Below are positions 7,560 through 27,764 of a stretch of 64,000 bases of DNA, one piece after another. A program made the translations under genes and the position numbers. This stretch comes from Nanobdellota archaeon (GTDB lineage: Archaea > Nanobdellota > Nanobdellia > Woesearchaeales > JAHJEM01): the NCBI GenBank assembly GCA_043825215.1, contig JBDRSD010000039.1, forward strand, positions 14,302 to 78,301, read 5' to 3'. The notes beneath the pieces are model-generated. The model was not told where the DNA came from and did not search any database. It saw only the letters and a list, made by a program, of their open reading frames with translations. How positions within the stretch are numbered: position 1 is the first letter of the stretch; the number at the start of each line of letters is the position of its first letter.

Positions 7560-7625
7560 GTTTCGTATTTACTATGAATACGCCTATTTATAAAGGTTAT
7601 CTTTTAAGACGAGGGTTTCGTATTT
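7560..7625 (+). promoter_or_regulatory. Two direct copies of GTTTCGTATTT (7560..7570 and 7615..7625) bracketing the TATA box
   Basis: Exact 11-bp direct repeat spaced 55 bp apart. The same core TTCGTAT recurs at other promoters in the window. Confidence 0.5.
7587..7594 (-). promoter_or_regulatory. TATA box (TTTATAAA) about 37-44 bp upstream of the recombinase start codon
   Basis: AT-rich palindromic TATA element in the 133-bp gap 7551..7683. A TTTCGTATTT motif copy lies on each side of it. Confidence 0.45.
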
Positions 7626-7683
7626 GTATCAATTACGTAATAATTTCAATATTTCAACTACGTCCAGTGACATCACGAAAGGA

Positions 7684-9264
7684 TCAGCTCTGCACAAGAC
7701 TCACGACGACAAAACCGGAGCAGTTGCCCTTCTGCGGCTTTGGCACCCCCATCTTCCAATACACATCCCTCGTCGGAGAAAAGGTATCATTCTTCGGCTC
7801 AAGGTTGAAGGAATCAAGCTGCACAGCGGTTGCTGTCAAAGAGGTCATCAGGGAATACAGAAGTCCCCCACTCAAGGAATACCGCTCATAGCCAATAGAA
7901 ATGTTTCCCTCATCGCAAGCCATGGAGAGCCCGTCACCTTCACTTGCCCCATATCCGAACAATGCCACATCCATCTCACCATTTCCCACGTTCTCAATCG
8001 TTATGGCAGAATCTGCTGTCGAGTTCTCTCCAGGATTCAACACGCCATAATCAATAATAAGAGGCGTTATGTTCATCCCGAAGATAGTGCTCACATTCAC
8101 GACTGAATGATTGAAACCAGTCGTCCCGTTCATGTCCACAGCTGTCGCATTGCACGCCCACTCACCAGGAACAGCATAATACCAGACAGAAAAGCCACAG
8201 GTATAATTCCTATACCCACCTCCCTCATAGATTGAATCACAGCTCGCATTCGAAAGGTGAAGAGAACTCTCATCAGGAGCACCATTAGACGAAGAAGAAT
8301 GATACAGGCTTGCCTGCACATTGACTAGATCACCTAAACCGTCCAGGTCAGTCACACTCGCATTGCACTCGACCTGCACAATATCACCGAGGGAAGGAAC
8401 AACGACCGGCAGGCTAGTCACTGAAAGGACCTCTGGCTCCCGATTGGCATCAATTGCCACATAGTTCCTGCCCGCGTCAGACCAGATATCATTGCTATCT
8501 GTACAATTCACCAACCAAAAATACTCCTTGTTCTCCAGCGTCACATTGAACGTATTCAGACGATCTTTGTCAGGATAGCTCTGGGAACTGTTGAAAGAAT
8601 CATTCAAGTACAAATCACAAGACACAATCGTCGAATTGTCCGAGACAGTATAATTGAAAAGGACAGCGCTTGACAATTCCCAGACAGAATTGTTCTGAGG
8701 AGAAACTGCGGAAACTAATGGAATCTCATCATCAAGACCTACCACTACACGTACCTCGTACACATGCATCACCGCACCATCAGGAACAGAATCATTAAGA
8801 CCAGCAATGATGATCTTCAGTTTTTCCATGATCTCACTCCACACCCACACACCATTTCCGTGCTCTGTGAGATTTGACAAGGTAAGATTCTGCCTGACGA
8901 CATTCTCTGCAGAAAACAGCCTCAGATCATACTGCGTTGTGCCATTATCATCAGAATACCTGATCGCCCAGCGATCATCAGTGATGCCTGACACCTCCAG
9001 ATCAATAACCAAATTGACGACATACAATGGCTCCGCATCCGGATGGGAAGAGATGTTGAAATTAAAAAAAGTGAGATTTCCATCGCTCAGGTTGATATGG
9101 GCAAAGGTAGAATAATCCTCGTCGAATGCATTCGCCTGGTCACTTGAATTGATTGTGGCATCAAACCCCCGGGGATGAGAAGGAAGCTGGCTTCCTGACA
9201 CAAGACCCAAAGACAGGAGAAAGAGTGCAAGAAAGATATGAACATTCTTCTGGCCCATCTTCAC
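7684..9264 (-). CDS. Secreted glycoprotein-like protein, 526 aa. Its C-terminus shares a YWK...VP.P..G.C.G.VV motif with the 312-aa and 303-aa proteins.
   Basis: Signal peptide MKMGQKNVHIFLALFLLSLGLVSGS. Very many NxS/T sequons. C-terminus DVYWKMGVPKPQKGNCSGFVVV. It lies 4 nt downstream of the preceding gene. Confidence 0.7.
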   Translation of the reverse strand: MKMGQKNVHIFLALFLLSLGLVSGSQLPSHPRGFDATINSSDQANAFDEDYSTFAHINLSDGNLTFFNFNISSHPDAEPLYVVNLVIDLEVSGITDDRWAIRYSDDNGTTQYDLRLFSAENVVRQNLTLSNLTEHGNGVWVWSEIMEKLKIIIAGLNDSVPDGAVMHVYEVRVVVGLDDEIPLVSAVSPQNNSVWELSSAVLFNYTVSDNSTIVSCDLYLNDSFNSSQSYPDKDRLNTFNVTLENKEYFWLVNCTDSNDIWSDAGRNYVAIDANREPEVLSVTSLPVVVPSLGDIVQVECNASVTDLDGLGDLVNVQASLYHSSSSNGAPDESSLHLSNASCDSIYEGGGYRNYTCGFSVWYYAVPGEWACNATAVDMNGTTGFNHSVVNVSTIFGMNITPLIIDYGVLNPGENSTADSAITIENVGNGEMDVALFGYGASEGDGLSMACDEGNISIGYERYSLSGGLLYSLMTSLTATAVQLDSFNLEPKNDTFSPTRDVYWKMGVPKPQKGNCSGFVVVSLVQS

Positions 9265-9268
9265 CCCC

Positions 9269-10483
9269 CTATGATATGATTCGTTTTGCCTTCTTTTTGC
9301 GCTTCCTTTTGATCAACACAACCAGCAGCATGATCGCCACAAGGACAATTATGATCGGCACAAATGACCACGAGGAGATCCGCCTGCGCTCGACCTCTTT
9401 CTCCAATCCAACATCTGCAGGAAAGGCTTCCAGAAGAGACGCCTTCTCAAACGTCAGCTTGTTGTTGTACAAAACCCTTCCGAAAATCTCGTATTTGCCT
9501 TCCTTCTCGGGCGTAAAAAAGCTCTCGAAATCGACAATCTCTCCAGGAAGGACGTCCAGGTTGTCTGTCTCAATAAGCTTCACCACCACATTTGCCGATC
9601 GTATCGTCCCTTTGAATTTTGCTGAGACAGCCCGCTCCCCGCTGTTCTTGAAAATCGCTTTTATGGGGGTGATCTGGCCGACACGTCCGTAATATTGGTT
9701 CTCTATGCGCATCAAATCCCCCCTGTCTGAAATACCACCTTTTTCAAGAACCTCGAATGTGATCTCTTCTGCAGGCTGGGCGCAGAGCGGCACAGTCACA
9801 TTGACAAAATACTGGCCCTTGGAAAGTTCAAGGCCGGGAATCGCCTGAAATGTATCCACGCTTATCGTCGGAAGGACTTCCTCCCCAGTCACGGTCACGC
9901 TCGCAACCTTGACTGCATGCTCCCTGTCCCAAAAATCAAGCTTTGCCTCAGGAGTGATCCGTACATTGCCCTGGTTCAAGACAGAGAAACGAAATTCAAC
10001 AGGCTTTCCTTCCTCAGTATCAGGTATCCTAAAACCGCCAGGAATGCATGAGATCAATTCCTGCCCTGTTATGCCTATCTCTGTCTGGATAGCAAAAGAT
10101 ACGATAATCGTACTCCCAATGCGCCCCTTGATGTCTGTCGAGAGAACACCTGTCCTCACCCGTATCAATCCCGTATACATGCCATTTGCCACGTCAGCGG
10201 GCGGGCTTACGACGAAAGTCACCCATTGCCCGTGATCCCTGCTTATATAGAGCTCGCCCTCTTCCTTAACAGAAATCCAGGGCTTAATTTCTCCTTCTGC
10301 TTCATAGACCAAGGAAAGATTTTCTACTGAATCAGTCGAAACATACACCTGCTCCTCTGCATATCCATTTTTCAACACGTCATCAATATGGATGAGAGCT
10401 TTACTCACACCAATCGCCGTACCTTCAACATGGGGAAATGCGAGAAGCAAGAATAAAACTGTGCAAAGCAATAATCGTTTCAT
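9269..10483 (-). CDS. Surface protein, 404 aa, with an N-terminal signal peptide and a C-terminal TM helix plus polybasic tail
   Basis: N-terminus MKRLLLCTVLFLLLAFPHVEG. C-terminus WSFVPIIIVLVAIMLLVVLIKRKRKKKAKRIIS. A TATA box at 10508..10515 lies about 24 bp upstream of the ATG, which implies a leaderless transcript. Confidence 0.75.
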   Translation of the reverse strand: MKRLLLCTVLFLLLAFPHVEGTAIGVSKALIHIDDVLKNGYAEEQVYVSTDSVENLSLVYEAEGEIKPWISVKEEGELYISRDHGQWVTFVVSPPADVANGMYTGLIRVRTGVLSTDIKGRIGSTIIVSFAIQTEIGITGQELISCIPGGFRIPDTEEGKPVEFRFSVLNQGNVRITPEAKLDFWDREHAVKVASVTVTGEEVLPTISVDTFQAIPGLELSKGQYFVNVTVPLCAQPAEEITFEVLEKGGISDRGDLMRIENQYYGRVGQITPIKAIFKNSGERAVSAKFKGTIRSANVVVKLIETDNLDVLPGEIVDFESFFTPEKEGKYEIFGRVLYNNKLTFEKASLLEAFPADVGLEKEVERRRISSWSFVPIIIVLVAIMLLVVLIKRKRKKKAKRIIS

Positions 10484-10507
10484 ACATGAAAAAACAGAAC
10501 AAGCTCA

Positions 10508-10515
10508 TTTATAAA
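10508..10515 (-). promoter_or_regulatory. TATA box TTTATAAA centred about -28 from the ATG of the 404-aa gene (leaderless transcript)
   Basis: The minus strand reads actaaataTTTATAAAtgagcttgttctgttttttcatgtATG. Confidence 0.55.
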
Positions 10516-10553
10516 TATTTAGTTTGAAAGACACAAACATTTTCAAAGAACAC

Positions 10554-10569
10554 AAAAAAAGAAAAATTT
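10554..10569 (-). terminator. Oligo-T terminator (AAATTTTTCTTTTTTT on the minus strand) 2 nt after the stop of the 312-aa gene
   Basis: A T-rich tract follows the TAG stop at 10572 directly. This is the archaeal-style intergenic layout of terminator followed by the next promoter. Confidence 0.5.
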
Positions 10570-10571
10570 CC

Positions 10572-11510
10572 CTAACCAGACCAGCCAGCAAGTTGCGCCT
10601 CATACACAACAGTCCCATTGCAGACGCCGAAAGGATTTGGCGGGACGTAGAGCTTCCAATAGGTCGTGTTGAGCGAGAGCTCATCAGTCTGCTGCTTGAA
10701 GATCGTCACATTGCCTATCGTCCTTGGCCCGCTAGTCAGATTGACCATAGTCACCCAAGAGACATTTCCTACCGGAGTCCAGCGCTCATTACCAATGGTA
10801 ATATTTGTCCCATACGGACAGATAAAAGAGAGTTCCTGACCTGTCAGGTTGCTTGTGCCGCCGTAACCATACACACTGAGATTGATCGGCTGGTTGCCCC
10901 AGTTTGTCACATTCACCTGCTGGACGTTCGACGTGTCGAAGACAGACAGGTTGCCGTAATCAATGAGGTCTGTGACATTCATCGCAAACAGGGGATAGAT
11001 GAGGCTTGAATTGGTGCCGTTGATAGGGTAATTGAGTGTGTTGTTCACCTGGACAGAGCAGTTCCAGCTCCCATTGTAGGCATGATAGGTCACATTATTA
11101 AAGGCGCAGATGTACCTGAACGTGTAGGAGTTGACCGTCTGGTTATACTCACATGAATAATTTTGATATCGTGTATTGTTGTCTTGGGCACCGAACGGGG
11201 AGACATTGTCCCTGTGGAATGTCGCATTGACCTTGTCAATATCGGCAAGACCGTTGTAGTCAATGATCGTCACATTGCATTCGACCAGGCGGACAGTTCC
11301 CTCGGAGAGGTTGATTGGCGCACCTTGATTGATGATGATACTAGTTATAATAGGGAGTGACTGGGTGATGTTCACCCTTGTCGTGACATTGGTCCGGTCA
11401 TATGCTATGATGTATCCTATCTGGATGAGGAGAACCAATATGAGACCTGCGAGGAGAAAATAAAGAATCCTTGGCTTCTTGTTGATGTTTTTGTGCGCCA
11501 CGTCGATCAC
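10572..11510 (-). CDS. N-terminally anchored extracellular protein, 312 aa, paralog of the 303-aa protein at 21133..22044. GTG start.
   Basis: N-terminal TM FLLAGLILVLLIQIGYIIAY. Shared blocks with the 303-aa protein: VNITQS..INQGAPINLSEGT..CNVTIIDYNGLADIDKVNATFHRDN...YWKLYVPPNPFGVCNGTVV. Confidence 0.7.
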   Translation of the reverse strand: MIDVAHKNINKKPRILYFLLAGLILVLLIQIGYIIAYDRTNVTTRVNITQSLPIITSIIINQGAPINLSEGTVRLVECNVTIIDYNGLADIDKVNATFHRDNVSPFGAQDNNTRYQNYSCEYNQTVNSYTFRYICAFNNVTYHAYNGSWNCSVQVNNTLNYPINGTNSSLIYPLFAMNVTDLIDYGNLSVFDTSNVQQVNVTNWGNQPINLSVYGYGGTSNLTGQELSFICPYGTNITIGNERWTPVGNVSWVTMVNLTSGPRTIGNVTIFKQQTDELSLNTTYWKLYVPPNPFGVCNGTVVYEAQLAGWSG

Positions 11511-11644
11511 GTAATTGTGCTGCTAATATACGAATTAGTATATCTATATCATAACTTGTATATAAATCTTTCGTTCTTATGTACCCCACCTCTTCCTGCT
11601 CTCCACATTCATCCCACCAATAGCAACCCAGATACATCTTGAAA

Positions 11645-14548
11645 TCATGCGAAGCCCTTCAGGAAATCCCTGGAAAAGGATTCTGCCCTTCGTGCATAGG
11701 ACGACAAGGCGCTTTCCCGCGCATCCTCTTCTGCAAGCGACGACCTGAGTTCCTGAAGCCGTGTGAGCGCTGACCTGAGCCCGACGACATTTTTCCTGTC
11801 GATACACGCATGGACGTCTTTGACCGCTTGCATAAGGGCTAGCTTATCATACACCTCGCACATACCATGATGGAGCGCTACATTCTCCTGGTCAGCATAC
11901 TGATACAGGTCGAGCAAGGTCAGGTAATACGAATAGGCCTGGCCGACATCAAGCGCATCTGCACGCTCATTTGCATGATGCATGAGACGCATCAACTGCA
12001 CAGAGCCCACGTCAGGATGTGATCTCGTGCCAGGGACTGCTGCAGCATTCACCATTCCAGAAGATGCAGCAGCTGCTGAATCATTGGCTGGATTGACCAT
12101 GGCAGGCTGGCGCTCCTGAGTCCGTCGCTCTTGAACCTCATTTCCGCACATACTGCACCATGGTTCCGCAACATGACCAGATGCAGCTCTTCTCTCTGCA
12201 GAATGAAAATGGCGCTTTTCTTCCGTCGGGGAGACTGTATGGCCTGCTTCTGCCCCGGGTACCTCTCTTCCCTTCCTCTGCACGAGCTGTTGCACAGAAG
12301 CCTCCCCGCTCTGGCCAGCCTCATAACTTTCTTCTGCTTTCAAGAAAAAGAAGTAATAGACAGCAAGACCCAGGACGATGATCCCCCCTATGATAATCAT
12401 GATGAAATTCATTCCAGTGAACCATGAGCCTTTGCTCTCCGTCATCGTGAGGCCGTTTCCGCTCGCAAGGCCTGTGATCGAATCGTTCCTGCCTGACGAC
12501 GCATTCCTCCCTGCCAATACTGGCTCGGACAGGACGACAGTTCTCACCGTCTTCATGCTGTTGATGTCCTTCTGGCCAGGGATCGCGTATGAGAAGCGAA
12601 ACCCGTCAGCCCGGCTTGGATTCCATCTCAGGACTGGATCATCCTTGACCACAATAGGAGGTACGCTGCTCTTGACAAGGGACGCTTTCTGGGCGACTGC
12701 CTTTGGGATAATCTCGACGACAATGCCTGCGCTGCCTTCGGAGCGGATGCTCTTTTCCACCAGCGCGAAGGACGATTCCTTCTCAAAAGAGAGCAAGCGC
12801 ACCAGGAGTATCTTCACATTGACATCTGTCTTATCATTTATCGCAAGCATCTCCTGCTCAAACGATGCCCGGTCAGGCAGGTCACGGGAGAAGACATCGT
12901 CGATGGCCTGAAAGATCGTCACATCCTCAAGGGACTGCACAAGCTCGGATTTCTGGTCGATGTCAATCTCTTTCACCACATCCTTGAGTGCCCGCTCCAT
13001 GCGCACATCGATCAGGTCAAGCCTGGACGAGAGCTCCTGCTCAGAAAGTTGCGAGGACAGATAGCCCTCAAGCTCCAGGCGCATTCCCTGGATTGCCTGC
13101 GCTGCTGCTTTAGCTTCTCCCAGCAGGTCAAAAAAGGAGATGACAGACACCGTATCCGCATCAGTTGCTCCTGACAGGTCAGAGATGACCTGCTCGAGCT
13201 CAAGAGACTTCCTGTCAAGAAGAGTGATCTGCTTTTTCACGCTTCCTGAAAGGGATGCCGGAAGCGTGACCTGCTCAGATGCCTGCAGGCCGTAATCTGC
13301 AGTCAAGAAGCGCTCGGTAGAGAGATCCCCCTCATTTCCTGCCTTGTCCACTGCAGAGATCCGGTAATGGTACGTCGTCCCATCTTCGACATCACCATCA
13401 AGATAGCTTGTCGCAGTCGTTCTCGTCAGGTAGTTTATCTGGTCCACTGACGAGAGCTCAGACCGAAAGATCCTGAAGTAATCAACCTCCTCTCCCTCAT
13501 AATACCATTCCAGCTCCAATCCCTTCCTATCGTTCGTAACCTCAAGGGAAAGAGGTGCCGGCGGCTTTCTCGTATCGACGATGAACAGCTTTCCACCCGT
13601 TATCTCTGTCCCAGAAAGTCCGGAGAGATCAATCCCTGAAAAGGAGAACGTGCCGATGCGGTCAGCAGCATCTTCAGGGATGATAAGATAGCCATGATAG
13701 GCGAGACCGCTTCCCACCAATGACACTATCCGAAAATTCCCGTCATCATTATAATTATACTTGAGGATGGGGGCTTCCACAAGTTCTTCTGACAAAGACA
13801 CCCCGACCTCATAGGTGCCTGCCTTAAGCACGTCACCCCCGTCGATAATCACAGCAGCCGAAGGCCTCAGGTTGACATCAAATGAGACTTCGAAGCCGTC
13901 CTGCTGCACATTCCCAGCGCCATCCTTGCAACGCACATAATACCTGTACTGCGCCTGGGGCAGCTTTCCCAATAGCTCCTTATGGACGAATCTGCCAGTC
14001 GTGTCAAACGTCTCCTGGAGCAAGTCATAGGGCACATTGGTGATGTCATACCTGCATGCCGCCTGCTCATTTGTCGTCACGTTGAGCTCGACCAGTCCAG
14101 AGGTCAATGTCCCTGATGGGTATGCCTTTGTGATCAGTGGAGGGGTCCTGTCGACGGTAAATGTGAAATTCTCAGTCATTCCTGTGTTGTTCAGAAGATC
14201 CCTGCAGCCGACAAAAAAGGTATATTGCCCTTCCGGAAGGTTGAGAAGATCCTGATGGTCTGTGCCCTGGCCTGCGAAGAGGAACTCCAGCTCGTCAAAC
14301 AAGCCATAGCCTGTGTCATACCTGCATGATGCAGGCTCGTCAGTCGTGACCTCAAGCGCCACAGGATAGTCTGAGATTGCTCCTTTGGGGGATTTTGCGA
14401 GTATGATTGGCGGCAGCGTATCTGGGTCTGCCCGTGCTATTCCGGGAACCAGGGCAAGGATGAGGAAGATGCACAGTGCTGCACGCACAGAGGGGAATCT
14501 TTTGCCTGTCATTCCCCATTTCCCGCTTCCAGCCTTCCAGTCTTCCAT
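11645..14548 (-). CDS. Single-pass membrane protein, 967 aa. The extracellular part has repeated CRYD-containing domains and an FN3 domain. The cytoplasmic tail is large.
   Basis: Signal peptide ALCIFLILALVPGIARA. FN3 signature PPAPLSLEVTN...LEWYYEGEEVDYFRIFR...TTYHYRISAVDKAGNEG. TM FIMIIIGGIIVLGLAVYYFFFL. The start abuts the stop of the RHH gene at 14548/14549. Confidence 0.75.
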   Translation of the reverse strand: MEDWKAGSGKWGMTGKRFPSVRAALCIFLILALVPGIARADPDTLPPIILAKSPKGAISDYPVALEVTTDEPASCRYDTGYGLFDELEFLFAGQGTDHQDLLNLPEGQYTFFVGCRDLLNNTGMTENFTFTVDRTPPLITKAYPSGTLTSGLVELNVTTNEQAACRYDITNVPYDLLQETFDTTGRFVHKELLGKLPQAQYRYYVRCKDGAGNVQQDGFEVSFDVNLRPSAAVIIDGGDVLKAGTYEVGVSLSEELVEAPILKYNYNDDGNFRIVSLVGSGLAYHGYLIIPEDAADRIGTFSFSGIDLSGLSGTEITGGKLFIVDTRKPPAPLSLEVTNDRKGLELEWYYEGEEVDYFRIFRSELSSVDQINYLTRTTATSYLDGDVEDGTTYHYRISAVDKAGNEGDLSTERFLTADYGLQASEQVTLPASLSGSVKKQITLLDRKSLELEQVISDLSGATDADTVSVISFFDLLGEAKAAAQAIQGMRLELEGYLSSQLSEQELSSRLDLIDVRMERALKDVVKEIDIDQKSELVQSLEDVTIFQAIDDVFSRDLPDRASFEQEMLAINDKTDVNVKILLVRLLSFEKESSFALVEKSIRSEGSAGIVVEIIPKAVAQKASLVKSSVPPIVVKDDPVLRWNPSRADGFRFSYAIPGQKDINSMKTVRTVVLSEPVLAGRNASSGRNDSITGLASGNGLTMTESKGSWFTGMNFIMIIIGGIIVLGLAVYYFFFLKAEESYEAGQSGEASVQQLVQRKGREVPGAEAGHTVSPTEEKRHFHSAERRAASGHVAEPWCSMCGNEVQERRTQERQPAMVNPANDSAAAASSGMVNAAAVPGTRSHPDVGSVQLMRLMHHANERADALDVGQAYSYYLTLLDLYQYADQENVALHHGMCEVYDKLALMQAVKDVHACIDRKNVVGLRSALTRLQELRSSLAEEDARESALSSYARRAESFSRDFLKGFA

Positions 14549-14785: not shown

Positions 14786-14786
14786 A

Positions 14787-19170: not shown

Positions 19171-19204
19171 TTATCTTTCACACCCAGTGATACCCGACAC
19201 GGCC

Positions 19205-20989: not shown

Positions 20990-21012
20990 GGCCTAAAAAA
21001 GGAATCAGGGCG

Positions 21013-21020
21013 TATATAAA
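21013..21020 (-). promoter_or_regulatory. TATA box (TTTATATA on the minus strand) about 24 bp upstream of the ATG of the 594-aa gene (leaderless)
   Basis: gggcgtatataaatcttg, with the adjacent CGTAT core. Confidence 0.5.
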
Positions 21021-21132
21021 TCTTGCGGTCAATACTTGCTCAATAACCCAGACGGATACTGACCAAAGCTTCATACGTGTCCCGCTCCACCAATGCCAAG
21101 TATTCTTCAGTTTCCATGAGTTTCACCTCTGT

Positions 21133-22044
21133 TTATGGATTTCCGCCCAATTGCCCTTCAATCACGATCGTGCCATTGCAGACACCGAAGGGATTCGGCG
21201 GGATGTATGTCTTCACATACGTTGTATTGATAGACAATTCATCAGTCATCTGCTTAGGCACAGTTATATTCTGAACAACCCGAGGACCACTCGTCATCGC
21301 AACCATGGTATCATAGCTGATGTTGCCAAGAGATGTCCACCGCACATTGCCAATAGAGATGTTTGTCCCTATCGGACAGACAAAGGCAAGGCCACCGCCT
21401 GATGCATTGCTGTTTCCCCCATAGCCATAGATGGTCAGGTTCAAGGGCTGGTTGCCCCAGTTCGTCACGTTGATCTCGCTGACATCTGACGTGTCAAAGA
21501 CCGAGAGGTTGCCAAAATCGACTGCGTCTGTCACGTTGACTGCGTAGAGGGGATAGATCGTGCTGAAATTGGTCCCATTCTGGGTGTAGTTCAGCGTGCT
21601 GTTGACAAAGACCGTGCAGTTCCAACTCCCGTTGTACGCGTAATAGGTCACGTTGAAATCGCAGTAGTACGCAAAATTGTTCGCATCGATCGAATAATTG
21701 TAGCTGCAATTGGTGTTCTTGTAGACCGTGTTGTTTTCAGCATCAGCAAAAACGCTCGTGTTCGACCTGTGGAATGTCGCGTTGACCTTGTCGATGTCGC
21801 TCAGGCCGGAATAGTCAGTGATTGTCACATTGCAGACCACATTCAAGTCCGTTCCCTCAGATAGGTTGATCGGCCCTCCCTGGTTGATAACGATATTTGC
21901 GACTGTCGCCGCAGACTGGGTGATGTTCACCTGGGTCGAGACTGTCGTCTGGTCATAGCTTACGGCAACGCCAACAAGCCCTATCATCAGAAGAGATGTT
22001 GCTGCTATCAACAGTGCCAGTATCTTATTGTTTGCCATTTTCAT
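21133..22044 (-). CDS. N-anchored extracellular protein, 303 aa, paralog of 10572..11510
   Basis: MKMANNKILALLIAATSLLMIGLVGVAV. Blocks VNITQS..INQGGPINLSEGT..CNVTITDYSGLSDIDKVNATFHRSN...YVKTYIPPNPFGVCNGTIV. The start abuts the stop of the next gene at 22044/22045. Confidence 0.75.
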   Translation of the reverse strand: MKMANNKILALLIAATSLLMIGLVGVAVSYDQTTVSTQVNITQSAATVANIVINQGGPINLSEGTDLNVVCNVTITDYSGLSDIDKVNATFHRSNTSVFADAENNTVYKNTNCSYNYSIDANNFAYYCDFNVTYYAYNGSWNCTVFVNSTLNYTQNGTNFSTIYPLYAVNVTDAVDFGNLSVFDTSDVSEINVTNWGNQPLNLTIYGYGGNSNASGGGLAFVCPIGTNISIGNVRWTSLGNISYDTMVAMTSGPRVVQNITVPKQMTDELSINTTYVKTYIPPNPFGVCNGTIVIEGQLGGNP

Positions 22045-22779
22045 TCACTTAATCTCTGCGTAAAAGTAATACGCGTTCGTTGTTGTGCTTGACCCGTTCT
22101 CAGGGACTATCATCTGGAAATCATACGTCGTGTTGTCAAAGCCGTATGCATTGTTCTCGATAAGGGCCGCAAAGACCATGTTGCCTCCGTCAGAGAGGAC
22201 AACCTCCTGGAAATCAGAGGCGGTCGCAGTCGCCTGGCGGGTGTCGTTGACAAACAGGAAGGTCGAATTACAGGTGTTCGCCGTGATCGTCACCGCACCC
22301 ACCTTGATCTGAGTATGCACAGTCGCATTGAACGAGCGGTTGATGTTGTCGACCTGTGTCGCGCTGTAGCCGAAGTAATTGTTCTCGCTCTCCATATGCG
22401 CCTCATTGGCGCAGACAATCCCTGGCCAGTTGATGGTGCTGTTCCTCGACGCATAGACCTCTCCGCCGGTGACGGTGAGTTCCCAATTGTATATCGTCCT
22501 GTTCTGCGCGTCATCCAAGGTGAAGCTTCCTGTCACGTTCCCGAGGTATGCCTTCCAGTTCTGGTTCTGGGAGAGCGTGTCCATGTTGGTTACATAGATA
22601 TACCCTCCAGAATCGTTCCTTGATCCGGCTGCGGTCCCATTGCTTGAGCCGTTGTACTGAAAAGAGACAGCAACACCGGACGGCAGTGCAGCTATCTCCC
22701 GTAGGACAAGCCCTGCAACCCCTAAAAACAGGACGAGGGTTACCAATCCGATGTATGCGTTTCTTTTCATGTTAGTCAC
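22045..22779 (-). CDS. Secreted ~240-aa protein, member 1 of a five-gene paralogous family
   Basis: Signal peptide with AALPSG cleavage region. Family motifs WKAYLGNVTG, TIYNWE, GEVYASR, DFQMIVPENG. C-terminus YYFYAEIK. Confidence 0.75.
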   Translation of the reverse strand: MTNMKRNAYIGLVTLVLFLGVAGLVLREIAALPSGVAVSFQYNGSSNGTAAGSRNDSGGYIYVTNMDTLSQNQNWKAYLGNVTGSFTLDDAQNRTIYNWELTVTGGEVYASRNSTINWPGIVCANEAHMESENNYFGYSATQVDNINRSFNATVHTQIKVGAVTITANTCNSTFLFVNDTRQATATASDFQEVVLSDGGNMVFAALIENNAYGFDNTTYDFQMIVPENGSSTTTNAYYFYAEIK

Positions 22780-22798
22780 CTTTTCAATAGTGTTCGTC

Positions 22799-23545
22799 TT
22801 ATCCGAGCTCCACCCAGAAGTAATACTGGGTCAGCGTGTTCTCCTCAGCCAATGTGTGCCCATCCTCAGGGACAAGCATCTGGAAGTCATGGGCCTCGCC
22901 ATCAAATCCTGTTGCCGTGTCGTTAATGACCGACACATAGACTATATCATGGTTGATATCATTCAAAATCACTTCAGCATACACATAAGGTGCTGATTGA
23001 GCTGCTCCACTCACATAGGTATAAGTCGTATAGCAGGTGTCTGCCTCTGTGATGTTCGCATTGCCCACATAGAACTGCGGGTGCGGATTTGCAGTTGAGA
23101 ATGTCGCTGAGATGTTGTCTGCGTCAGTCTCTTCCATGCCCATCGCGACCTCTTCCTCAAGGATCTTTGATGCATTCGAGCAGTTGACCCAATTGAAATT
23201 GACCGTGTTGACACGGGCTGCATAAACCTCTCCCTGGGTTGATCCTATACCCCACTTGTACAGCTGCTGGCCATTGGAATCTTCCAATGTGATGTTTCCG
23301 GTCACATTACCGTAGAAGCCCTGCCAGGCCTTGGTTATCTGGGTCCCGTTGATCTCGAGTTCAGATATGTTTCCTGCCTGCGCATACACGCTTCCGATGC
23401 TTCCACCAGACAGGTTTCCCCGTGTTGAGTTGAGCACGCCAACTTCTGCCCCTTCCGGGTTTGCGAGCGCCATTCTCACGCTTGCAAGGGCTATTGCTAG
23501 TGTCAATCCCACAAAAAGGATTGCGTATATTCTCTCTTTTTTCAT
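22799..23545 (-). CDS. Secreted ~248-aa protein, family member 2
   Basis: MKKERIYAILFVGLTLAIALASVRMALA. Motifs WQGFYGNVTG, GEVYAARV, DFQMLVPEDG. C-terminus YYFWVELG. ATGA overlap with the upstream HTH gene. Confidence 0.75.
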   Translation of the reverse strand: MKKERIYAILFVGLTLAIALASVRMALANPEGAEVGVLNSTRGNLSGGSIGSVYAQAGNISELEINGTQITKAWQGFYGNVTGNITLEDSNGQQLYKWGIGSTQGEVYAARVNTVNFNWVNCSNASKILEEEVAMGMEETDADNISATFSTANPHPQFYVGNANITEADTCYTTYTYVSGAAQSAPYVYAEVILNDINHDIVYVSVINDTATGFDGEAHDFQMLVPEDGHTLAEENTLTQYYFWVELG

Positions 23546-24144
23546 AAAACCACCTCTCCTTCATTTTTTTTTAGATGCGAAGGATCGTAAAGAACGAAAA
23601 AGTCCCCTTTCATGCGGCTTTGTGCATCATGAGCTGAGACAAACTGGCACTTGAATGATTTTTTCTGGACACTTGCTGCAAGATGTTTTTTCTTCACGCG
23701 GTCATCATCCGACACTATATAGAGAGTCTGGTTTGAGAAATCCGCATACAGTGCCTTGATCCTGTCCAGATCATCTTCAAAGGACATGAACATCCGAAAC
23801 AGCTGGTCAGACTTTGCTTCATCATCGAGAAGCAGGATCTTTATGACTGCAGATCTTTTTGCGTTCAGGGTGATCTGCTTTTTCTCTGCATGGTGGGGCT
23901 CAAGAAGAATGATCATTGCCGTGCTCTTGACAAGGGAATAGACAAGCCTTGGCTGGCCGCGATCCCGATTCGGCACCCGAACGCTTGCGACAAGACCTGC
24001 CATTTCAAGGAGGCGTAGCTGCTGGCTCACATTTGCGACAGAAGTCTTTGCGATCTTCGCGATCTGGATAGGGGACTTGCCTTCCTTACTCAGTATGGAC
24101 AGGATGTCCCATTTTGTTGCTGTAAAGAGCATCTCTTGATTCAT
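23542..24144 (-). CDS. Winged-HTH transcription regulator (TrmB/ArsR-like N-terminal domain), 200 aa
   Basis: SPIQIAKIAKTSVANVSQQLRLLEMAGLVASVRVPNRDRGQPRLVYSL. Confidence 0.65.
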   Translation of the reverse strand: MNQEMLFTATKWDILSILSKEGKSPIQIAKIAKTSVANVSQQLRLLEMAGLVASVRVPNRDRGQPRLVYSLVKSTAMIILLEPHHAEKKQITLNAKRSAVIKILLLDDEAKSDQLFRMFMSFEDDLDRIKALYADFSNQTLYIVSDDDRVKKKHLAASVQKKSFKCQFVSAHDAQSRMKGDFFVLYDPSHLKKNEGEVVL

Positions 24145-24473
24145 GCATGTACATTCGCGTGTTTCAGATTAGCGTTTCCGCCTATCACATACACACGAAC
24201 CCTCCCGACACTTTTTCACGATTGGCGCACGCGATGTTAGCCGGCACCGCATGCGCCGCTAGTATACACTTTTGTATGTTACTCTATCCCATGACAGTAC
24301 TTCTATTTAAATGTTTCGTTTTCTACTGTACCACTGTGTTAATGTACCACCACACTATTAATTGCACAATCTTACATTATTTTTGTAATTTTATAATTTA
24401 GTAACTAATTAAATTATGAGATTGAAGGCCTCAAGCGCCATAACTCAAGAATTCGTCGCAAATCATATGGCAC

Positions 24474-25193
24474 CTAACCAATCTCTGCAAAGAAATAATA
24501 GGTTGTCGGGCTTGACGCAAACTCATCATTGGCAAGAATCAGCTGGAAGTCATAGAGCTGGTTGTTGAAGCCATACTTATTGTTCTCAATGATTGTCGCG
24601 TAGAACAGGGAAGAGGTATCTGTCAGGAGGATCTCCTGGAAGAGCGCAGTCGGACCTGCTGCCTGACGCGTATCATTGACATAGGTTGCAATGGCAAAAC
24701 AATCGTTCTGAGGAATCGACACTGTCCCGACATAGAATGCCTTATGGAATGACGCATTGAAGGTGTTGTTCAGGCTGTCTGCGCTATCCGCATTCATATT
24801 GATTGCCGTCATCTCGCCAGACATGTCTGCTGCATCAGCACACTCTGTGAGCGCCCAATTGAGGGTTCCCGCTCGGGACGCAAATATCTCTCCTGTCACA
24901 ATCGACGGGGTCCAATCATAGATGGTGTTGTTCACAGCATCATTCAGCGTCATGATCCCGGTGACATTACCCACGTACGCCTTCCACCGCAGGGATTGCG
25001 CAGTGATATTGAGCGACATCGTCGTAAATGAACCTCCTGCTGTCGTCAATTCTGCTGCTGACTGCGGCGTGTAATTAAGGGTCTGATTATAGATGAAGTC
25101 GACACCGCTCGGAAGCGCGCTTGCCCAGGCAGACAGGGCAAGGACCATCAGGAGGGCAAGAATTCCCCATCCGGCCTGTTTCTCCTTATACAT
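24474..25193 (-). CDS. Secreted protein, family member 3. The start is refined to the internal ATG at 25193; the track ORF runs to 25283.
   Basis: MYKEKQAGWGILALLMVLALSAWASALPSG. Motifs WKAYVGNVTG, TIYDW, GEIFASR, DFQLILAND. C-terminus YYFFAEIG. The refined start removes the overlap with the upstream regulator. Confidence 0.7.
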   Translation of the reverse strand: MYKEKQAGWGILALLMVLALSAWASALPSGVDFIYNQTLNYTPQSAAELTTAGGSFTTMSLNITAQSLRWKAYVGNVTGIMTLNDAVNNTIYDWTPSIVTGEIFASRAGTLNWALTECADAADMSGEMTAINMNADSADSLNNTFNASFHKAFYVGTVSIPQNDCFAIATYVNDTRQAAGPTALFQEILLTDTSSLFYATIIENNKYGFNNQLYDFQLILANDEFASSPTTYYFFAEIG

Positions 25194-25701
25194 GTTCCCT
25201 CCCTTCAAGCTTTTTCTGCGCGCGATGATATGATGTCCAGACAGTCCTTTGGTCCTTCCTGAGGAGGGATCCCATCTCTGCATAGGAGAACCCTGCGCCC
25301 TTCAGGAAGACACAAATCGCCTCAAGAGGGCCGAGCAGACGATCTGAGAAGACAGACAAGGGAACATTCACGGCAGAGGATGCAGGGATGCCAGTTGCCC
25401 CTTGAGGAAGCTTTCTGTAGCTTGTCCAGACAGCAGCATAGCTTCTCTTGAGATGGAGCGCAATCTCATCAAACGACAGGCGCCCCACATCATGGAGATA
25501 AGCGACAAGCACCCGCAGGATGCTTGCATCAGTGAAGAAGACAGAAAGCGGGACAGACAACTCAGCCGTTTTCAGGGTGTGAGAATATCTCTGCTCATTC
25601 TGCATGGGCAATGCTATTGCGACATAGTTCTCTTCTTTTTCCTGCAGCGCCCCATCTCGCCAACTCTCAGTTGCAGTGTCATTTCGATACGTCGAATCCA
25701 C
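25186..25701 (-). CDS. Regulator with an internally duplicated HTH (sigma-70 region-4/LuxR-like), 171 aa
   Basis: Two repeats: LSVFFTDASILRVLVAYLHDVGRLSFDEIALHLKRSYAAVWTSYRKL and LSVFSDRLLGPLEAICVFLKGAGFSYAEMGSLLRKDQRTVWTSYHRAQKKL. Confidence 0.55.
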   Translation of the reverse strand: MDSTYRNDTATESWRDGALQEKEENYVAIALPMQNEQRYSHTLKTAELSVPLSVFFTDASILRVLVAYLHDVGRLSFDEIALHLKRSYAAVWTSYRKLPQGATGIPASSAVNVPLSVFSDRLLGPLEAICVFLKGAGFSYAEMGSLLRKDQRTVWTSYHRAQKKLEGREHV

Positions 25702-25705
25702 GTAA

Positions 25706-25776
25706 TTCGTATTATGTAAGTATCTGATTTAAAAAGTTTGGCTTTTTCCAAGTTATTTTTCGTATTATGTAAGTAT
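25706..25776 (+). promoter_or_regulatory. Perfect 18-bp direct repeat TTCGTATTATGTAAGTAT (25706..25723 and 25759..25776) flanking a TTTAAAAA TATA-like element
   Basis: Read from the sequence. It begins 5 bp upstream of the regulator start codon at 25701. Confidence 0.55.
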
Positions 25777-26002
25777 TTCATCACACAATAACCACATTAT
25801 TTAATTTATTACTAAAATATTGAAGTATTAAAACATTTAAACATAGAAACAATGAAGTACAGAAATACAAGAAAACAGAAATACAATAATCAATTATGTT
25901 CTACATGATTTCCTTCTGTCGTCGGAATAGGAGGCAAGCGTGTCCAGAACACCTGGAAACAAAGGAGTAAAAAGGGTCTACAAAAGTGAAAAAGCCTTTC
26001 CT

Positions 26003-26761
26003 TCAGATCTCCACATAGAAATAATAGGTGGTCGGGGTTGCGAGGGTCTTGTTCTCCGGGAGGATGAGCTGGAAGTCGCTCGTCACATTGTCTGTCGAAT
26101 TCGTCTGGTAATTGAATTGGTCCTGCTCGATGAAGGTCGCATAGATGAGGCTGAAATGCGCATCCATGAGGAGGAGCTCCTGGAATACACTGTTAACGCT
26201 CACAGTCTGCTTTGTGTCATTGACATAGGTCGAGGTCATCCTGCAGGTGCTCTCGTTTATTGTGGACGTCGCGACCTGCATGGGCTTATGCGTCGACTCA
26301 TTGAACGTGCTGTTGATGCTGTCAGGAGCAGAATCGACCATACCGAAAAAGGTGGTCTCATTGTCCCTCACGGAGCTATTTGAGCAGTTGATCCACGTCC
26401 AGTCTATCGAGTTGTTCCTTGTCGCGTAGATCTCTCCTGTGAGTTCAGACGCATTCACCGACCAGTCATAGATCGTCCTGCCTTCTGTATCATCCAATGT
26501 GAAGAGGCCTGTCACGTTCCCGATGTATGCCTTCCACGCATAGTTCTGCTGGGTAGCAGATATGGAACCATAATAGAGATAGCCGCCGGCATTCGCAAGG
26601 GAATACGGGGTTGAACTGATGGTCGAGTTATCGGTGACGCTTATCGTCGGGCCGACAGGAAGCGCACTGACAGATGCCCAGGTGATCAGAGAAACCCCAA
26701 TGACCATCAGGAGCCATATCGCCTGTACACTCTTGGCCTGTGTGCGTTTCATTGGCATCAT
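26003..26761 (-). CDS. Secreted protein, family member 4 (252 aa)
   Basis: AIWLLMVIGVSLITWASVSALPVG. Motifs WKAYIGNVTG, TIYDWS, GEIYATR, DFQLILPEN. C-terminus YYFYVEI. Confidence 0.75.
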   Translation of the reverse strand: MMPMKRTQAKSVQAIWLLMVIGVSLITWASVSALPVGPTISVTDNSTISSTPYSLANAGGYLYYGSISATQQNYAWKAYIGNVTGLFTLDDTEGRTIYDWSVNASELTGEIYATRNNSIDWTWINCSNSSVRDNETTFFGMVDSAPDSINSTFNESTHKPMQVATSTINESTCRMTSTYVNDTKQTVSVNSVFQELLLMDAHFSLIYATFIEQDQFNYQTNSTDNVTSDFQLILPENKTLATPTTYYFYVEI

Positions 26762-26819
26762 CGCGTTGTTGGTTAAAGGACAGACCCGGGCAATTGCCCA
26801 GAATCTGCTGTATTAATGT

Positions 26820-27704
26820 TTACTCAATCTCTACCCAGAAGTAATAGTTGGTCTGGGTGTCTTCTGTTGCTTCTGTATGACCATCTTCCATGACTAGCAT
26901 CTGGAAGTCATAGGGAGTTCCGTCAAAGCCGATAGGGTCTGATGCGTTGTTTTCGTCATTCTCGATGAACGTGACAAAGACAAGCGCATTGCTGCCACCG
27001 TCGCTTACGCTTCCGTCAGTCAGGAGGACTTCTGTGAAATCCTTTGCCTGGGAGACATTGCCTATGTATGTCCAGGTTGTCGGGCAGGTCTGTTCATGGA
27101 TCGTCACTGTTCCGACATTGAACCTTGTGTGGTTGGTCCAGTTGAAGGTCACGTTGATCGTGTCTGGATCAGTATTCAGGAGACCGAACCTGGCATTCTC
27201 TGTGCTTGCATTGATATCAGATCCAACATAGGTTCCGTTACCAACATCTGCATCCGGATCTCCAGCAGTGAAATTGAAGCAGCGGATCTGACCCCACGCA
27301 ACTGAGGAGTTTGTCGACGTGTAGATCTTTCCCTGGGGCTCTGCATCGTTCCAATTGTAGAGCGTGTTGTTCTGGGCATCCTGCAAGATGAGCTGGCCGC
27401 TGATGTTCCCATAGTAGCCCTGCCAGGATTTTGTGACGGATGTCGCGTTCAACACGAGCTCAGTCACGTTGCCTGCTTCGGCAGGAGTTGACTTGGGACT
27501 ATACGATGTGTTCAAGAGGCGCTCACTTCTTCCAACAGTGAGGGTGTGCACACCGATAGGCTCTGTCGGCTCTGCAAAGCTGAATCGCAGCACAAAACTG
27601 AGAGCCAATATTGTCAATACCACAAAACTGATGTTTTTTATCAGGTTTCGTCGAATCATTTTGATTTCACCTTTTCCACGATCCCGTCCGATAAACGAGA
27701 CCAT
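26820..27704 (-). CDS. Secreted protein, family member 5 (294 aa). An alternative start is at 27659.
   Basis: MIRRNLIKNISFVVLTILALSFVLRFSFA. Motifs WQGYYGNISG, TLYNWN, GKIYTST, DFQMLVMEDG. C-terminus YYFWVEIE. Confidence 0.75.
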   Translation of the reverse strand: MVSFIGRDRGKGEIKMIRRNLIKNISFVVLTILALSFVLRFSFAEPTEPIGVHTLTVGRSERLLNTSYSPKSTPAEAGNVTELVLNATSVTKSWQGYYGNISGQLILQDAQNNTLYNWNDAEPQGKIYTSTNSSVAWGQIRCFNFTAGDPDADVGNGTYVGSDINASTENARFGLLNTDPDTINVTFNWTNHTRFNVGTVTIHEQTCPTTWTYIGNVSQAKDFTEVLLTDGSVSDGGSNALVFVTFIENDENNASDPIGFDGTPYDFQMLVMEDGHTEATEDTQTNYYFWVEIE

Positions 27705-27725
27705 TATACTAAATTAATATATTAA

Positions 27726-27764
27726 TTCGTATACTCATATATAAATATTTCGGTTTCGTATAGT
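27726..27764 (+). promoter_or_regulatory. TTCGTATAC - TATATAAATATTT - TTTCGTATAG: two motif copies flanking a TATA box upstream of family member 5
   Basis: Same architecture as the recombinase promoter and the tandem-HTH regulator promoter. Confidence 0.5.

Follow-up and report, generated by a model that had tools for sequence, protein, structure and literature searches.

The word TTCGTAT (ATACGAA on the other strand) probably marks three separate operator systems, and not one, in the 64,000-nucleotide stretch of DNA analysed here (the window). We put the probability of this reading at roughly 0.7. The source of the window is an uncultured DPANN archaeon (Woesearchaeota/Nanoarchaeota), and the window carries a conserved cluster of genes encoding secreted, possibly pilin-like, and giant surface proteins, with archaeal BRE/TATA promoters throughout. 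The three longer motifs that share the 7-mer are GTATAC double boxes, a CTTACATAATAAG palindrome (the CTTAC motif) and a CGTAWT-N7-AWTACG palindrome, and in uncultured Woesearchaeota two of the operator types are conserved at the corresponding genes. The comparison set consisted of 160 related loci (about 1.9-2 Mb) fetched around two cluster genes. PWMs for the CTTAC motif and the double box were built from the relatives only and then run on the window, where they select non-overlapping sets of sites. The locus had been called an island in an earlier note on this DNA; this label does not hold, as conservation and synteny in Woesearchaeota extend to nearly all of the genes in 7684..29188.

Distribution of the TTCGTAT word

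The earlier note had listed copies of TTCGTAT at several promoters and had read them as one element of one regulon. All of the listed copies are present. The letters are exact at 7560-7570, 7615-7625, 25706-25723, 25759-25776, 27726-27734, 11526-11543 and 21011-21020, three others were placed one base off and belong at 27754-27763 (TTTCGTATAG), 11569-11578 (TTTCGTTCTT) and 24313-24324 (GTTTCGTTTTCT), and the CGTATAC said to occur twice at 18068-18090 is instead AGTATAC and CGTATAC, that is GTATAC-N6-GTATAC at 18066-18083. On both strands of the window the word occurs 21 times against 6.35 expected, a count reached by 0 of 100 shuffles. It is the most enriched 7-mer of the 14 intergenic regions (2593 bp), with 8 occurrences against 0.58 expected (matched by 0 of 300 shuffles), and its density is ~3.1 per kb in intergenic and ~0.2 per kb in coding sequence. 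At all three promoters two copies bracket the TATA box as had been proposed, and these copies are located where archaeal regulators act. A copy was also said to lie 5-25 bp from the start codon; this is correct at 7560 (TTG 7550) and 25706 (GTG 25701) but not at 27726, because homologues and the NCBI annotation place that start at ATG 27659, after a GGTGA ribosome-binding site. The proposed promoter layout is supported, and the single element and regulon are not: three longer motifs, unrelated to each other, overlap in the 7-mer.

ATACGAA is found in all three operator types of the window, with two copies per promoter that share one orientation and lie around the TATA box, and no pair of this kind occurs in 1.9 Mb of relatives. 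The CTTAC sites of the window also have a C at motif position 13 that is rare in relatives (5%) and that creates ATACGAA. These observations, together with the intergenic enrichment, would be expected if one regulator read TTCGTAT/ATACGAA itself and controlled all three bracketed promoters and the variant sites as a single regulon. We consider this unlikely, however, as the identity within pairs runs over longer unrelated sequence (18 bp for 25706/25759 and 11 to ~23 bp for 7560/7615) and the spacings within pairs are unequal (29, 53 and 55 bp). Two of the three bracketing pairs belong to elements that many genomes keep at orthologous promoters, and what those promoters keep is GTATAC or CTTACATAATAAG, not ACGAA. 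Moreover, ATACGAA with a TATA box within ~40 nt is no commoner in relatives than AATCGAA and is rarer than ATACAAA or ATACTAA. The presence of ATACGAA in three operator types is treated here, short of proof, as a coincidence combined with a frequent TATAC-GAA junction.

Core promoter parts and GTATAC double boxes

Nearly all transcription units in the window and in the relatives are preceded by cGAAA-N2-TTTAWATA, and the lineage core promoter aaaacGAAAnA-TTTAWATA is found also at genes without boxes. The earlier note had allowed that its motif might be simply the generic BRE/TATA consensus, and for three sites this is a full explanation (strands are given in parentheses after coordinates). The site at 11569..11578 (-) is a generic BRE AAGAACGAAA beside the TATA box TTTATATA, follows the lineage BRE consensus and is not a regulator site; 24313..24324 (-) is a generic BRE AGAAAACGAAAC of the same consensus beside the TATA box TTTAAATA; and 21011..21020 (-) reads as the TATA box TTTATATACG of gene 19205..20989, a gene with a double box in 0 of 42 orthologous promoters. 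The GAAAC after the 27755 box is likewise accounted for by the core promoter, and ATATAC is the 3' end of many TATA boxes too. It is nevertheless very unlikely that all of the elements are generic parts (BRE, TATA box, initiator or promoter-proximal element) that need no specific regulator. The three palindrome classes do not follow this consensus, the CTTAC motif is confined to one gene family, and double boxes lie on both sides of the TATA box, upstream and downstream, and are restricted to certain genes.

Particular orthologous genes keep the double-box consensus, AGTATAC-N6-GTATACT, next to their TATA boxes. About 2 Mb of related loci contain 152 double boxes against ~36 in local shuffles, a statistic that is partly circular, with loci chosen around two cluster genes; 107 of the 152 abut a TATA box. 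The genes downstream encode the 138-aa protein (57), the 279-aa family (21), proteins of ~65 aa (11) and proteins of ~310 aa including that of gene 10572 (7). A double box of at least 12 bits is present in 70 of 83 (84%) orthologous promoters of the 138-aa gene, in genomes of 26-63% GC, and a double box occurs in 23 of 50 orthologous promoters of the gene for the 200-aa protein HTH-200. The frequencies at other cluster genes are 0/42, 0/18, 0/18 and 0/30, which add up to 0 of 108 for the genes encoding 594, 404, 709 and 234 aa, and 2.3% of random segments score. It follows from these family-specific frequencies that the double box is not a generic core-promoter element. Its positions from the TATA box are fixed at -29/-17, +11/+23 and +43/44.

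At a threshold of at least 12 bits the PWM finds exactly five double boxes in the whole window against 0.1 expected, and all five are at promoters. Two of these flank the core promoter at 27738..27752 (-), which matches the lineage consensus (BRE CGAAATA at 27752..27746, TATA TTTATATA at 27745..27738) and serves the gene of a 279-aa secreted protein (26820..27659 (-); N-terminal helix and beta domain, a member of a set of five paralogues that the window encodes). The class A double box tgaGTATACgaattAATATAttaa at 27714..27737 (-; 19.6 bits) contains the copy at 27726-27734 and lies directly downstream of the TATA box, with its first box beginning 11 nt past the first T; ~20 orthologous promoters have the form CGAAAC-A-TTTATATA-TGA-GTATAC-N6-GTATAY. 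The class B double box TTATAC-N6-CTATAC at 27755..27778 (-; 21.1 bits) lies just upstream of the BRE (-30/-18), overlaps the word copy at 27754-27763 and is arranged like GTATAC-N6-GTATAC-GAAA-CGAAAYA-TTTATATA in relatives. A perfect class B double box, GTATAC-AAAAAC-GTATAC, is found at 18063..18086 (+; 27.5 bits), the site listed earlier at 18068-18090, 4 nt upstream of the BRE/TATA of the 138-aa gene. The near-palindrome at 11526-11543 belongs to ATATAC-TAATTC-GTATAT at 11523..11546 (-; 19.0 bits). This double box belongs to gene 10572..11510 (312 aa), and its two boxes lie 23 and 35 nt past the first T of that gene's TATA box; in six other loci a homologue of the gene is preceded by a class A double box. 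The remaining site, ACATAC-AAAAGT-GTATAC at 24259..24282 (-; 15.5 bits), was absent from the earlier list. It belongs to the operon headed by the HTH-200 gene (23542..24144 (-)), with its boxes 31 and 43 nt past the operon's TATA box, and xATAC-N6-GTATAC-TGG recurs at orthologous promoters of this gene.

The most likely candidate to bind the GTATAC boxes is the near-invariant 138-aa protein (18126..18542 (+), the only plus-strand gene identified in the window), with HTH-200, an ArsR/MarR-type winged-HTH protein (Pfam HTH_5, E 5.8e-7) with homologues in 46 related loci, as the alternative. The 138-aa protein, whose relatives show 61-87% identity by tblastn (~30-47% for HTH-200), is preferred because protein and operator are both nearly invariant. 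The pairing is ambiguous since both genes carry boxes at their own promoters. The 138-aa protein is predicted to have a winged-helix fold at only moderate AlphaFold2 confidence (pLDDT 66), and winged-helix domains serve in protein-protein contacts too. The analysis establishes that the sites exist, are enriched, conserved and gene-specific, and have a defined geometry; protein binding, the sign of regulation and the pairing of proteins with sites are predictions from sequence at all of the sites discussed here.

The consensus AGTATAC-N6-GTATACT forms a palindrome of ~20 bp, a size that would suit one winged-helix dimer, and the 279-aa secreted-protein gene is a predicted target. At the secreted-protein genes and the HTH-200 operon (which also encodes three secreted-protein paralogues) the box immediately follows the TATA box or covers the start site, and a protein bound there would block RNA polymerase recruitment and lead to repression. 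At the 138-aa gene and 27755 the box is right upstream of the BRE, and a protein bound there may help or tune TBP/TFB recruitment, resulting in activation or autoregulation. Such placement, either 3-5 bp past the TATA box or immediately ahead of the BRE, is consistent with classical repression and activation in archaea.

The CTTAC palindrome at the double-HTH gene

The (A/T)CTTACATAATAAG palindrome brackets the TATA box of the double-HTH gene in ~25 relatives. In the window this gene (25186..25701 (-)) encodes a 171-aa protein with two sigma-70 region 4-like HTH units (Pfam Sigma70_r4_2, E 6.7e-7, in two stretches) and with homologues in 32 related loci. Its TATA box, read from the sequence, is TTTTTAAA at 25728..25735 (-). 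The proximal operator ataCTTACATAATACGaa is at 25706..25723 (-; 18.4 bits), its 15-mer core beginning 14 nt past the TATA box's first T, with 20 nt from there to GTG 25701, which is the favoured start; the operator-to-start distance agrees with relatives. The distal copy at 25759..25776 (-; 18.4 bits) precedes the TATA box by 39 nt and is separated by 53 bp from the proximal one, and these two are the only matches of the CTTAC PWM in the whole window.

The relatives contain 53 sites in 31 orthologous promoters, and 50 of the 60 sites with a downstream ORF precede double-HTH orthologues. The proximal site is at +12 to +14 in 19 orthologous promoters, and distal copies are at -39/-40, -53 or -61, with spacings to the proximal site of ~52, 65 and 74 bp. 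Copies within one genome share lineage-specific variants (0 of 2000 permutations reach the observed value), the pattern expected of an operator that co-evolves with its regulator. The suggestion that a locus-encoded regulator is involved is retained in part: the 171-aa protein is the best candidate at its own promoter, and a single regulon under one regulator is not supported. Two CTTACATAATA(A/C)G palindromes 53 bp (five helical turns) apart bracket the TATA box, with the proximal copy covering the stretch between TATA box and start site, and the 171-aa protein most likely represses its own gene cooperatively through them. Its predicted binding sequence is CTTACATAATACG.

The CGTAWT palindrome at the integrase-like/giant-protein operon

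The third pair consists of exact matches to CGTAWT-N7-AWTACG, each followed by AAAC, that lie 55 bp apart and bracket the operon TATA box (7594..7587). The proximal palindrome, CGTATT-CATAGTA-AATACG at 7564..7582 (-), contains 7560-7570; it precedes the integrase-like gene and begins 12 nt past the TATA box's first T. The distal one, CGTAAT-TGATACA-AATACG at 7619..7637 (-), contains 7615-7625 and lies upstream of the TATA box. Nothing similar was found in 1.9 Mb of relatives, so that this pair is without comparative support. It is probably an operator of a dimeric regulator specific to this genome, and its geometry around the TATA box is that of the CTTAC pair.

In each copy a 7-bp spacer separates inverted arms of 6 bp, as in the core site of a recombinase, and the adjacent gene (7035..7550) has a Phage_integrase domain, overlaps the start of the gene for a 2420-aa surface protein and is missing from all related loci. 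The copies could thus be recombination sites of this tyrosine recombinase, a highly improbable reading, and it is just as improbable that removal or rearrangement of the 55-bp TATA segment acts as a switch for the giant surface protein. Tyrosine recombinases require matching overlap regions, and the spacers TACTATG and TGTATCA match at 1 of 7 positions directly and 3 of 7 in reverse. The arms are just 6 bp, the geometry to the TATA box (+12, -43) is that of other operators in the locus, and no rearranged variant is present in the covered parts of near-identical contigs from two other datasets. Recent local duplication or chance matches without function in AT-rich, low-complexity sequence (intergenic GC 24-48%, 24-36% in most promoter regions, where short two-copy repeats are common) might be considered above all for the 7560/7615 pair, but are a most improbable account of the repeats given the shuffle controls, which are widely exceeded, and the orthologous sites, which in two of the three classes hold their positions across genomes that range from 26-63% GC.

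Comparison with known systems

Sites 11570, 24312 and 21011 are parts of the archaeal BRE/TATA core promoter; the GTATAC, CTTAC and CGTAWT palindromes differ from it in being gene-specific. In classical archaeal autorepressors such as MDR1, Phr and LrpA, the operators overlap the part of the promoter between TATA box and start site. Similarly, in the promoter of the candidate regulator's gene the double-HTH operator starts a few bp past the TATA box, the second, upstream CTTAC copy in helical phase suggests cooperative binding, and the expected mechanism would be blocked RNA polymerase recruitment. Unlike these autorepressors, the candidate regulator is uncharacterised, a protein of 171 aa whose two HTH units resemble sigma-70 region 4, and no earlier description of the motif CTTACATAATAAG was found in a full-text literature search.

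The GTATAC double boxes can be compared with the Thermococcales glycolytic motif (TGM), TATCAC-N5-GTGATA, of Pyrococcus and Thermococcus, on which TrmBL1 represses if bound downstream of the promoter and activates if bound upstream of BRE/TATA (PMC4706686). Both consist of two palindromic hexamers with a short spacer at many promoters of one functional gene set, with the site downstream of the TATA box or upstream of BRE/TATA and sometimes with autoregulation (PMC4706686). No TrmB-family protein was detected in the locus. The systems differ in the motif, which is GTATAC-N6-GTATAC here, in the lineage, which is DPANN, and in the targets, which are secreted and surface proteins and not sugar metabolism.

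Recurrence of the TTCGTAT word

The heptamer TTCGTAT (ATACGAA on the opposite strand) occurs far above chance in this DNA, with 21 copies on both strands of the window where 6.35 are expected; 21 was reached in none of 100 shuffles. Intergenic DNA amounts to only 2593 bp in 14 regions and holds 8 copies against 0.58 expected, a count that was reached in 0 of 300 dinucleotide shuffles. In these 14 regions ATACGAA/TTCGTAT is the most enriched 7-mer and GTATAC is the most enriched 6-mer. An earlier note had interpreted the word as one element that brackets TATA boxes and defines one regulon. The strings are present, and the window promoters show TATA boxes bracketed by copies of the word; coordinates are exact for seven sets and one base off for three, the correct positions being 27754-27763, 11569-11578, and 24313-24324. 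What had been described as CGTATAC occurring twice at 18068-18090 is GTATAC-N6-GTATAC at 18066-18083. The regulatory reading survives in that operators flank the TATA boxes and one of the proposed regulators is plausible. The single element and its regulon are an artefact: three unrelated AT-rich palindromes and the B recognition element (BRE) have a short word in common. One longer motif across all ATACGAA copies (ATAC-N6/7-ATAC) was also considered and rejected, as the periods differ and position-weight matrices (PWMs) separate the sites.

The GTATAC double box

The comparisons draw on 160 related loci (~1.9 Mb), 80 around homologues of the 279-aa gene product (26820..27659, minus strand) from GTDB genomes and 80 around homologues of a 138-aa protein (18126..18542, plus strand) from metagenomes. 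In ~20 orthologues of the 279-aa gene the promoter reads CGAAAC-A-TTTATATA-TGA-GTATAC-N6-GTATAY-TAATTTAGG, and the window promoter of this gene reads CGAAATA-TTTATATA-TGA-GTATAC-GAATT-AATATA-TTAATTTAG. Judged by these sequences, the promoter is deeply conserved and the ATACGAA-type copy at 27726 is its first GTATAC box; GTATAC is conserved there and ACGAA is not. The 18-bp unit GTATAC-N6-GTATAC is also found immediately 5' of the BRE at the 138-aa gene (18066-18083 in the window) and at nearly all orthologous promoters, in genomes of 26-63% GC. At 27754-27763 the copy forms the proximal box of another double box further upstream, TTATAC-N6-CTATAC-GAAAC-CGAAATA-TTTATATA, which is arranged exactly as at the 138-aa promoter. 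ATACGAA appears at these boxes because TATAC is often followed by GAAA(C) toward the BRE, a junction that relatives have too (e.g., GTATACGAAACGAAAC).

The loci and the window together (~2 Mb) contain 152 double boxes compared with ~36 in local shuffles, and 107 of the 152 abut a TATA box. The genes behind them belong to few families, namely the 138-aa gene (57), the 279-aa family (21), a ~65-aa protein that precedes the 279-aa family (11), and a ~310-aa family that includes the window gene 10572..11510 (7). Measured from the first T of the TATA box, box positions cluster at -29/-17, +11/+23, and +43/44. With a PWM built from relatives only, exactly five sites reach at least 12 bits in the 64-kb window against 0.1 expected, and all five are in promoters (11523-11546, 18063-18086, 24259-24282, 27714-27737, and 27755-27778). 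When boxes within 200 nt upstream of a gene were counted, 70 of the 83 promoters of the 138-aa gene and 23 of the 50 promoters of the gene encoding HTH-200 (a 200-aa helix-turn-helix regulator, 23542..24144, minus strand) had a double box, which was found in 2.3% of random segments and in none of the promoters of the 594-aa (0/42), 404-aa (0/18), 709-aa (0/18), and 234-aa (0/30) genes. The GTATAC double box is gene-specific.

In five related loci (L007, L008, L017, L028, and L068) a long 5' leader is conserved behind the double box, in the region ~100 nt ahead of the 279-aa homologue. In this leader TAATTTAGG is followed by a hairpin and the ATG is preceded by (A/G)CTTGCA...CTTGCAACGGTGA, and it may be a structured leader; the window has a shorter leader that lacks this feature. 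For the 279-aa gene ATG 27659 (behind GGTGA) is a likelier start than 27704, and for the 138-aa gene ATG 18126 is likelier than TTG 18114.

The CTTAC palindrome and the double-HTH protein

The second operator type, (A/T)CTTACATAATAAG(A/T), is found in 1-3 copies upstream of orthologues of 25186..25701 (minus strand) in ~25 loci. The gene encodes a 171-aa protein with two sigma-70 region 4-like helix-turn-helix (HTH) units (PF08281, 29.3 bits against a cut-off of 25.7, in two stretches), referred to here as the double-HTH, and this protein is the candidate binder of the operator string at its promoter, CTTACATAATACG. The two 18-bp repeats (25706-25723 and 25759-25776) have no TATAC box inside. 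A PWM from 53 sites in relatives gives both window copies 18.4 bits and nothing else of at least 10 bits in the 64-kb window, and, of the 60 strong sites in relatives that are followed by an ORF, 50 precede double-HTH orthologues.

In 19 promoters the proximal site starts at +12 to +14 relative to the first TATA-box T, with the start codon ~20 nt further on in relatives, where distal sites are located at -39/-40, -53, or -61 (spacings of ~52, 65, and 74 bp). The window copies are at +14 and -39, 53 bp apart and 20 nt from GTG 25701. This agreement in geometry supports the 171-aa reading from GTG 25701 and argues against a 55-aa ORF that one gene caller put over the repeats; the ORF (25614..25781, called on a Logan contig) is probably spurious. 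GTG 25701 is also a likelier start than the ATG 25605 of the gene caller.

Copies within one promoter have lineage-specific variants in common (ATAGG, ATCGAG, AGCAAG, and in the window ATACGA), with identity at 14.8 of 19 positions within a promoter versus 12.9 between promoters, a difference matched by 0 of 2000 permutations. Such sharing is the pattern that would be expected for an operator co-evolving with its own regulator. A word-indexed search with the 139-aa HTH returned the protein itself only; tblastn searches of the fetched loci identified homologues in 32 of them.

Strings resembling halves of this palindrome occur elsewhere in the window. At 18012..18041 (minus strand) ATAAGG/ATAAGT/ATAAGT follow one another with a 12-bp period directly upstream of the TATA box at 18008..18001, which belongs to a divergent minus-strand operon, and relatives keep TACTTATTTTTTTACTTAT at the same place. 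The half-site is identical to the right-hand half of CTTAC...TAAGT, so this may be a further site of action for the double-HTH. Close by, a start near 17975-17987 (ATG) is likelier than GTG 18059. The string CACTTACTTGT, which is similar to the ACTTAC half-site, is present in two intergenic regions, at 27865..27871 (near 27858) and at 14740..14760 on the minus strand (near 14750).

Candidate regulators of the GTATAC boxes

The 138-aa gene is the only plus-strand gene identified in the window, all others being on the minus strand. The protein is hypothetical in every source that names it, and its predicted fold is a winged helix. It has 4054 homologue clusters and is found in thousands of Woesearchaeota/Nanoarchaeota sequence clusters; the best 120 of the 4054 are 74-92% identical, whereas neighbouring cluster proteins are ~30-55% identical. 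We favour its pairing with the GTATAC boxes because a near-invariant protein parallels a near-invariant operator, in contrast to the fast-evolving double-HTH (27-45% identity), which goes with a variable operator. The one observation behind the predicted DNA binding is the conserved double box at the gene's own promoter in 70 of the 83 loci. HTH-200, an ArsR/MarR-type protein that is ~30-47% identical among relatives, likewise has boxes at its own promoter and is a good alternative as the binder.

With the 138-aa protein as the preferred partner, we give a probability of about one in three to the following reading. The invariant AGTATAC-N6-GTATACT and the 138-aa winged-helix protein would form a clade-wide master switch over the secreted, pilin-like surface-protein genes of episymbiotic archaea, and the double-HTH and the CTTAC palindrome would form a fast co-evolving autoregulatory circuit nested in the same cluster.

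The pair upstream of the integrase-like gene

The third type consists of two imperfect palindromes, CGTAWT-N7-AWTACG, at 7564-7582 and 7619-7637, each followed by AAAC and with no further match in the window or in the 1.9 Mb of relatives. The proximal copy (7564-7582) follows the TATA box (7594..7587), starting 12 nt after its first T, and the distal copy is upstream of the TATA box, 55 bp from the proximal one. They precede 7035..7550 (minus strand), which encodes a 171-aa Phage_integrase-domain protein with the tyrosine recombinase catalytic domain only, and whose stop codon overlaps (ATGA) the ATG of a 2420-aa DUF2341/Ig-domain surface protein (1..7038, minus strand). No homologue of the integrase-like protein was found in the 160 related loci (tblastn) or in viral contigs, and the gene represents either an insertion specific to this genome or a recombinase that has been recruited.

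A tyrosine-recombinase core site has inverted arms around a 6-8 bp overlap that is identical in both partner sites. The arms CGTAWT/AWTACG at both copies would fit recombination sites for this protein, but the central spacers of the two copies are not the same (TACTATG and TGTATCA), which makes that reading unlikely.

Generic promoter sequence

Archaeal core promoters combine an A/T-rich TATA box of 8 bp with a purine-rich BRE that immediately precedes it, and transcription is expected to start ~25 nt downstream of the TATA box. When 100 distinct upstream regions were aligned on their TATA boxes, the lineage consensus was aaaacGAAAnA-TTTAWATA, which also holds for gene families without any further motif or boxes, and the window promoters have this BRE/TATA arrangement. 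The distance from TATA box to start codon is ~30-35 nt at the 138-aa and 171-aa genes, which is compatible with short or absent leaders. Since the consensus is general, 11569-11578 (AAGAACGAAA-GA-TTTATATA) and 24313-24324 (AGAAAACGAAAC-A-TTTAAATA) are ordinary BREs, and 21011-21020 is a TATA box. The earlier note had listed these three as related variants of its element and had itself named identity with the generic BRE/TATA consensus as a refutation, which applies to them. It is improbable that ATACGAA recurs in each of the three operator types of this single genome for a meaningful reason.

The surface-protein gene cluster

Almost every gene in 7684..29188 has homologues in the 160 related loci by tblastn, the exceptions in that search being 7035..7550, the SET-domain gene 18778..19170, and the 55-aa gene-caller ORF. 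The locus had been regarded as an island; these homologues identify it instead as a conserved, syntenic Woesearchaeota core cluster and not a mobile island. A mobile element or provirus was rejected, since conservation in cellular metagenome-assembled genomes extends to nearly all genes of the cluster. Scans of viral contigs with the 967-aa, 434-aa, and integrase proteins gave no relatives. The product of 26820..27659 is 100% identical to an NCBI hypothetical protein encoded on a 104-kb contig of a 'Nanoarchaeota archaeon' metagenome-assembled genome and has at least 159 homologues in the DPANN groups Woesearchaeota, Pacearchaeota, and Nanoarchaeota. The names of these homologues speak against a haloarchaeal origin (Haloquadratum or a nanohaloarchaeon), which the GC content of 48% and the giant ORFs had brought into consideration and which was rejected.

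The cluster includes two paralogous secreted-protein families of 244-312 aa (genes at 22045, 22799, 24474, 26003, and 26820, and genes at 10572 and 21133). The 404-, 526-, 594-, 709-, and 967-aa proteins have no informative Pfam match, those of 526 and 967 aa being weakly Ig-like and that of 594 aa having a C-terminal zinc ribbon, and nothing usable on the function of cluster proteins came from Pfam or NCBIfam. The SET-domain protein within the cluster is 130 aa long (minus strand; Pfam E 5e-12). Three giant ORFs (1..7038, 29546..43078, and 43075..63876) fill most of the window, which has a GC content of 48%. The latter two are adjacent on the minus strand with a 4-nt overlap and encode 4510 and 6933 aa; the first of these has Ig-like, CARDB, and 3-keto-disaccharide-hydrolase-like domains, and Pfam matched nothing in the N-terminal 4959 aa of the second. 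Rfam and tRNA scans found no RNA genes in the window. Where they align, two contigs from a single Logan run and one from ENA match the window at 99.96-100% identity and so add nothing for footprinting.

We know of nothing on gene regulation in Woesearchaeota and their relatives, as the lineage is uncultured, and a full-text literature search found no described DPANN promoter or regulator motif, none of the present motifs, and no Woesearchaeota promoter elements. The analysis yields two conserved operator motifs with defined target genes, fixed positions from the TATA box, and concrete candidate regulators. These are the first cis-elements and candidate regulators to be defined for a conserved cluster of surface-protein genes in an uncultured DPANN lineage, and they offer testable entry points into the regulation of a cluster that may have a role in attachment to host cells. 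If true, the GTATAC/138-aa master switch would be the first cis-regulatory code for DPANN genes possibly involved in host interaction. Gene starts have also been corrected, and the island recast as a core syntenic cluster.

Proposed mechanism and comparison with known systems

In all three promoter types an operator starts 11-14 nt past the first TATA-box T, and a second copy is located upstream. This places the operator start 3-6 bp behind the 8-bp TATA box, on DNA that RNA polymerase has to occupy. By their position, the proximal operators would have the classical archaeal repression layout in which polymerase recruitment is blocked, and sites directly upstream of the BRE would have the activation layout. 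The 53- and 55-bp spacings (~5 helical turns) suggest that binding may be cooperative on one face of the DNA.

TrmBL1 both represses and activates through its TGM motif, depending on the position of the site, and the TGM operator is TATCAC-N5-GTGATA (PMC4706686). The window operator is GTATAC-N6-GTATAC, and no Pfam match to a TrmB-family regulator was found among the locus and cluster proteins scanned; because the motif differs and the locus yielded no TrmB protein, the system does not belong to the TrmB/TGM family. As an operator/regulator pair it would work like TrmBL1/TGM and the archaeal autorepressors. The proposed regulatory mechanism is of the classical archaeal type, and its conceptual novelty is modest.
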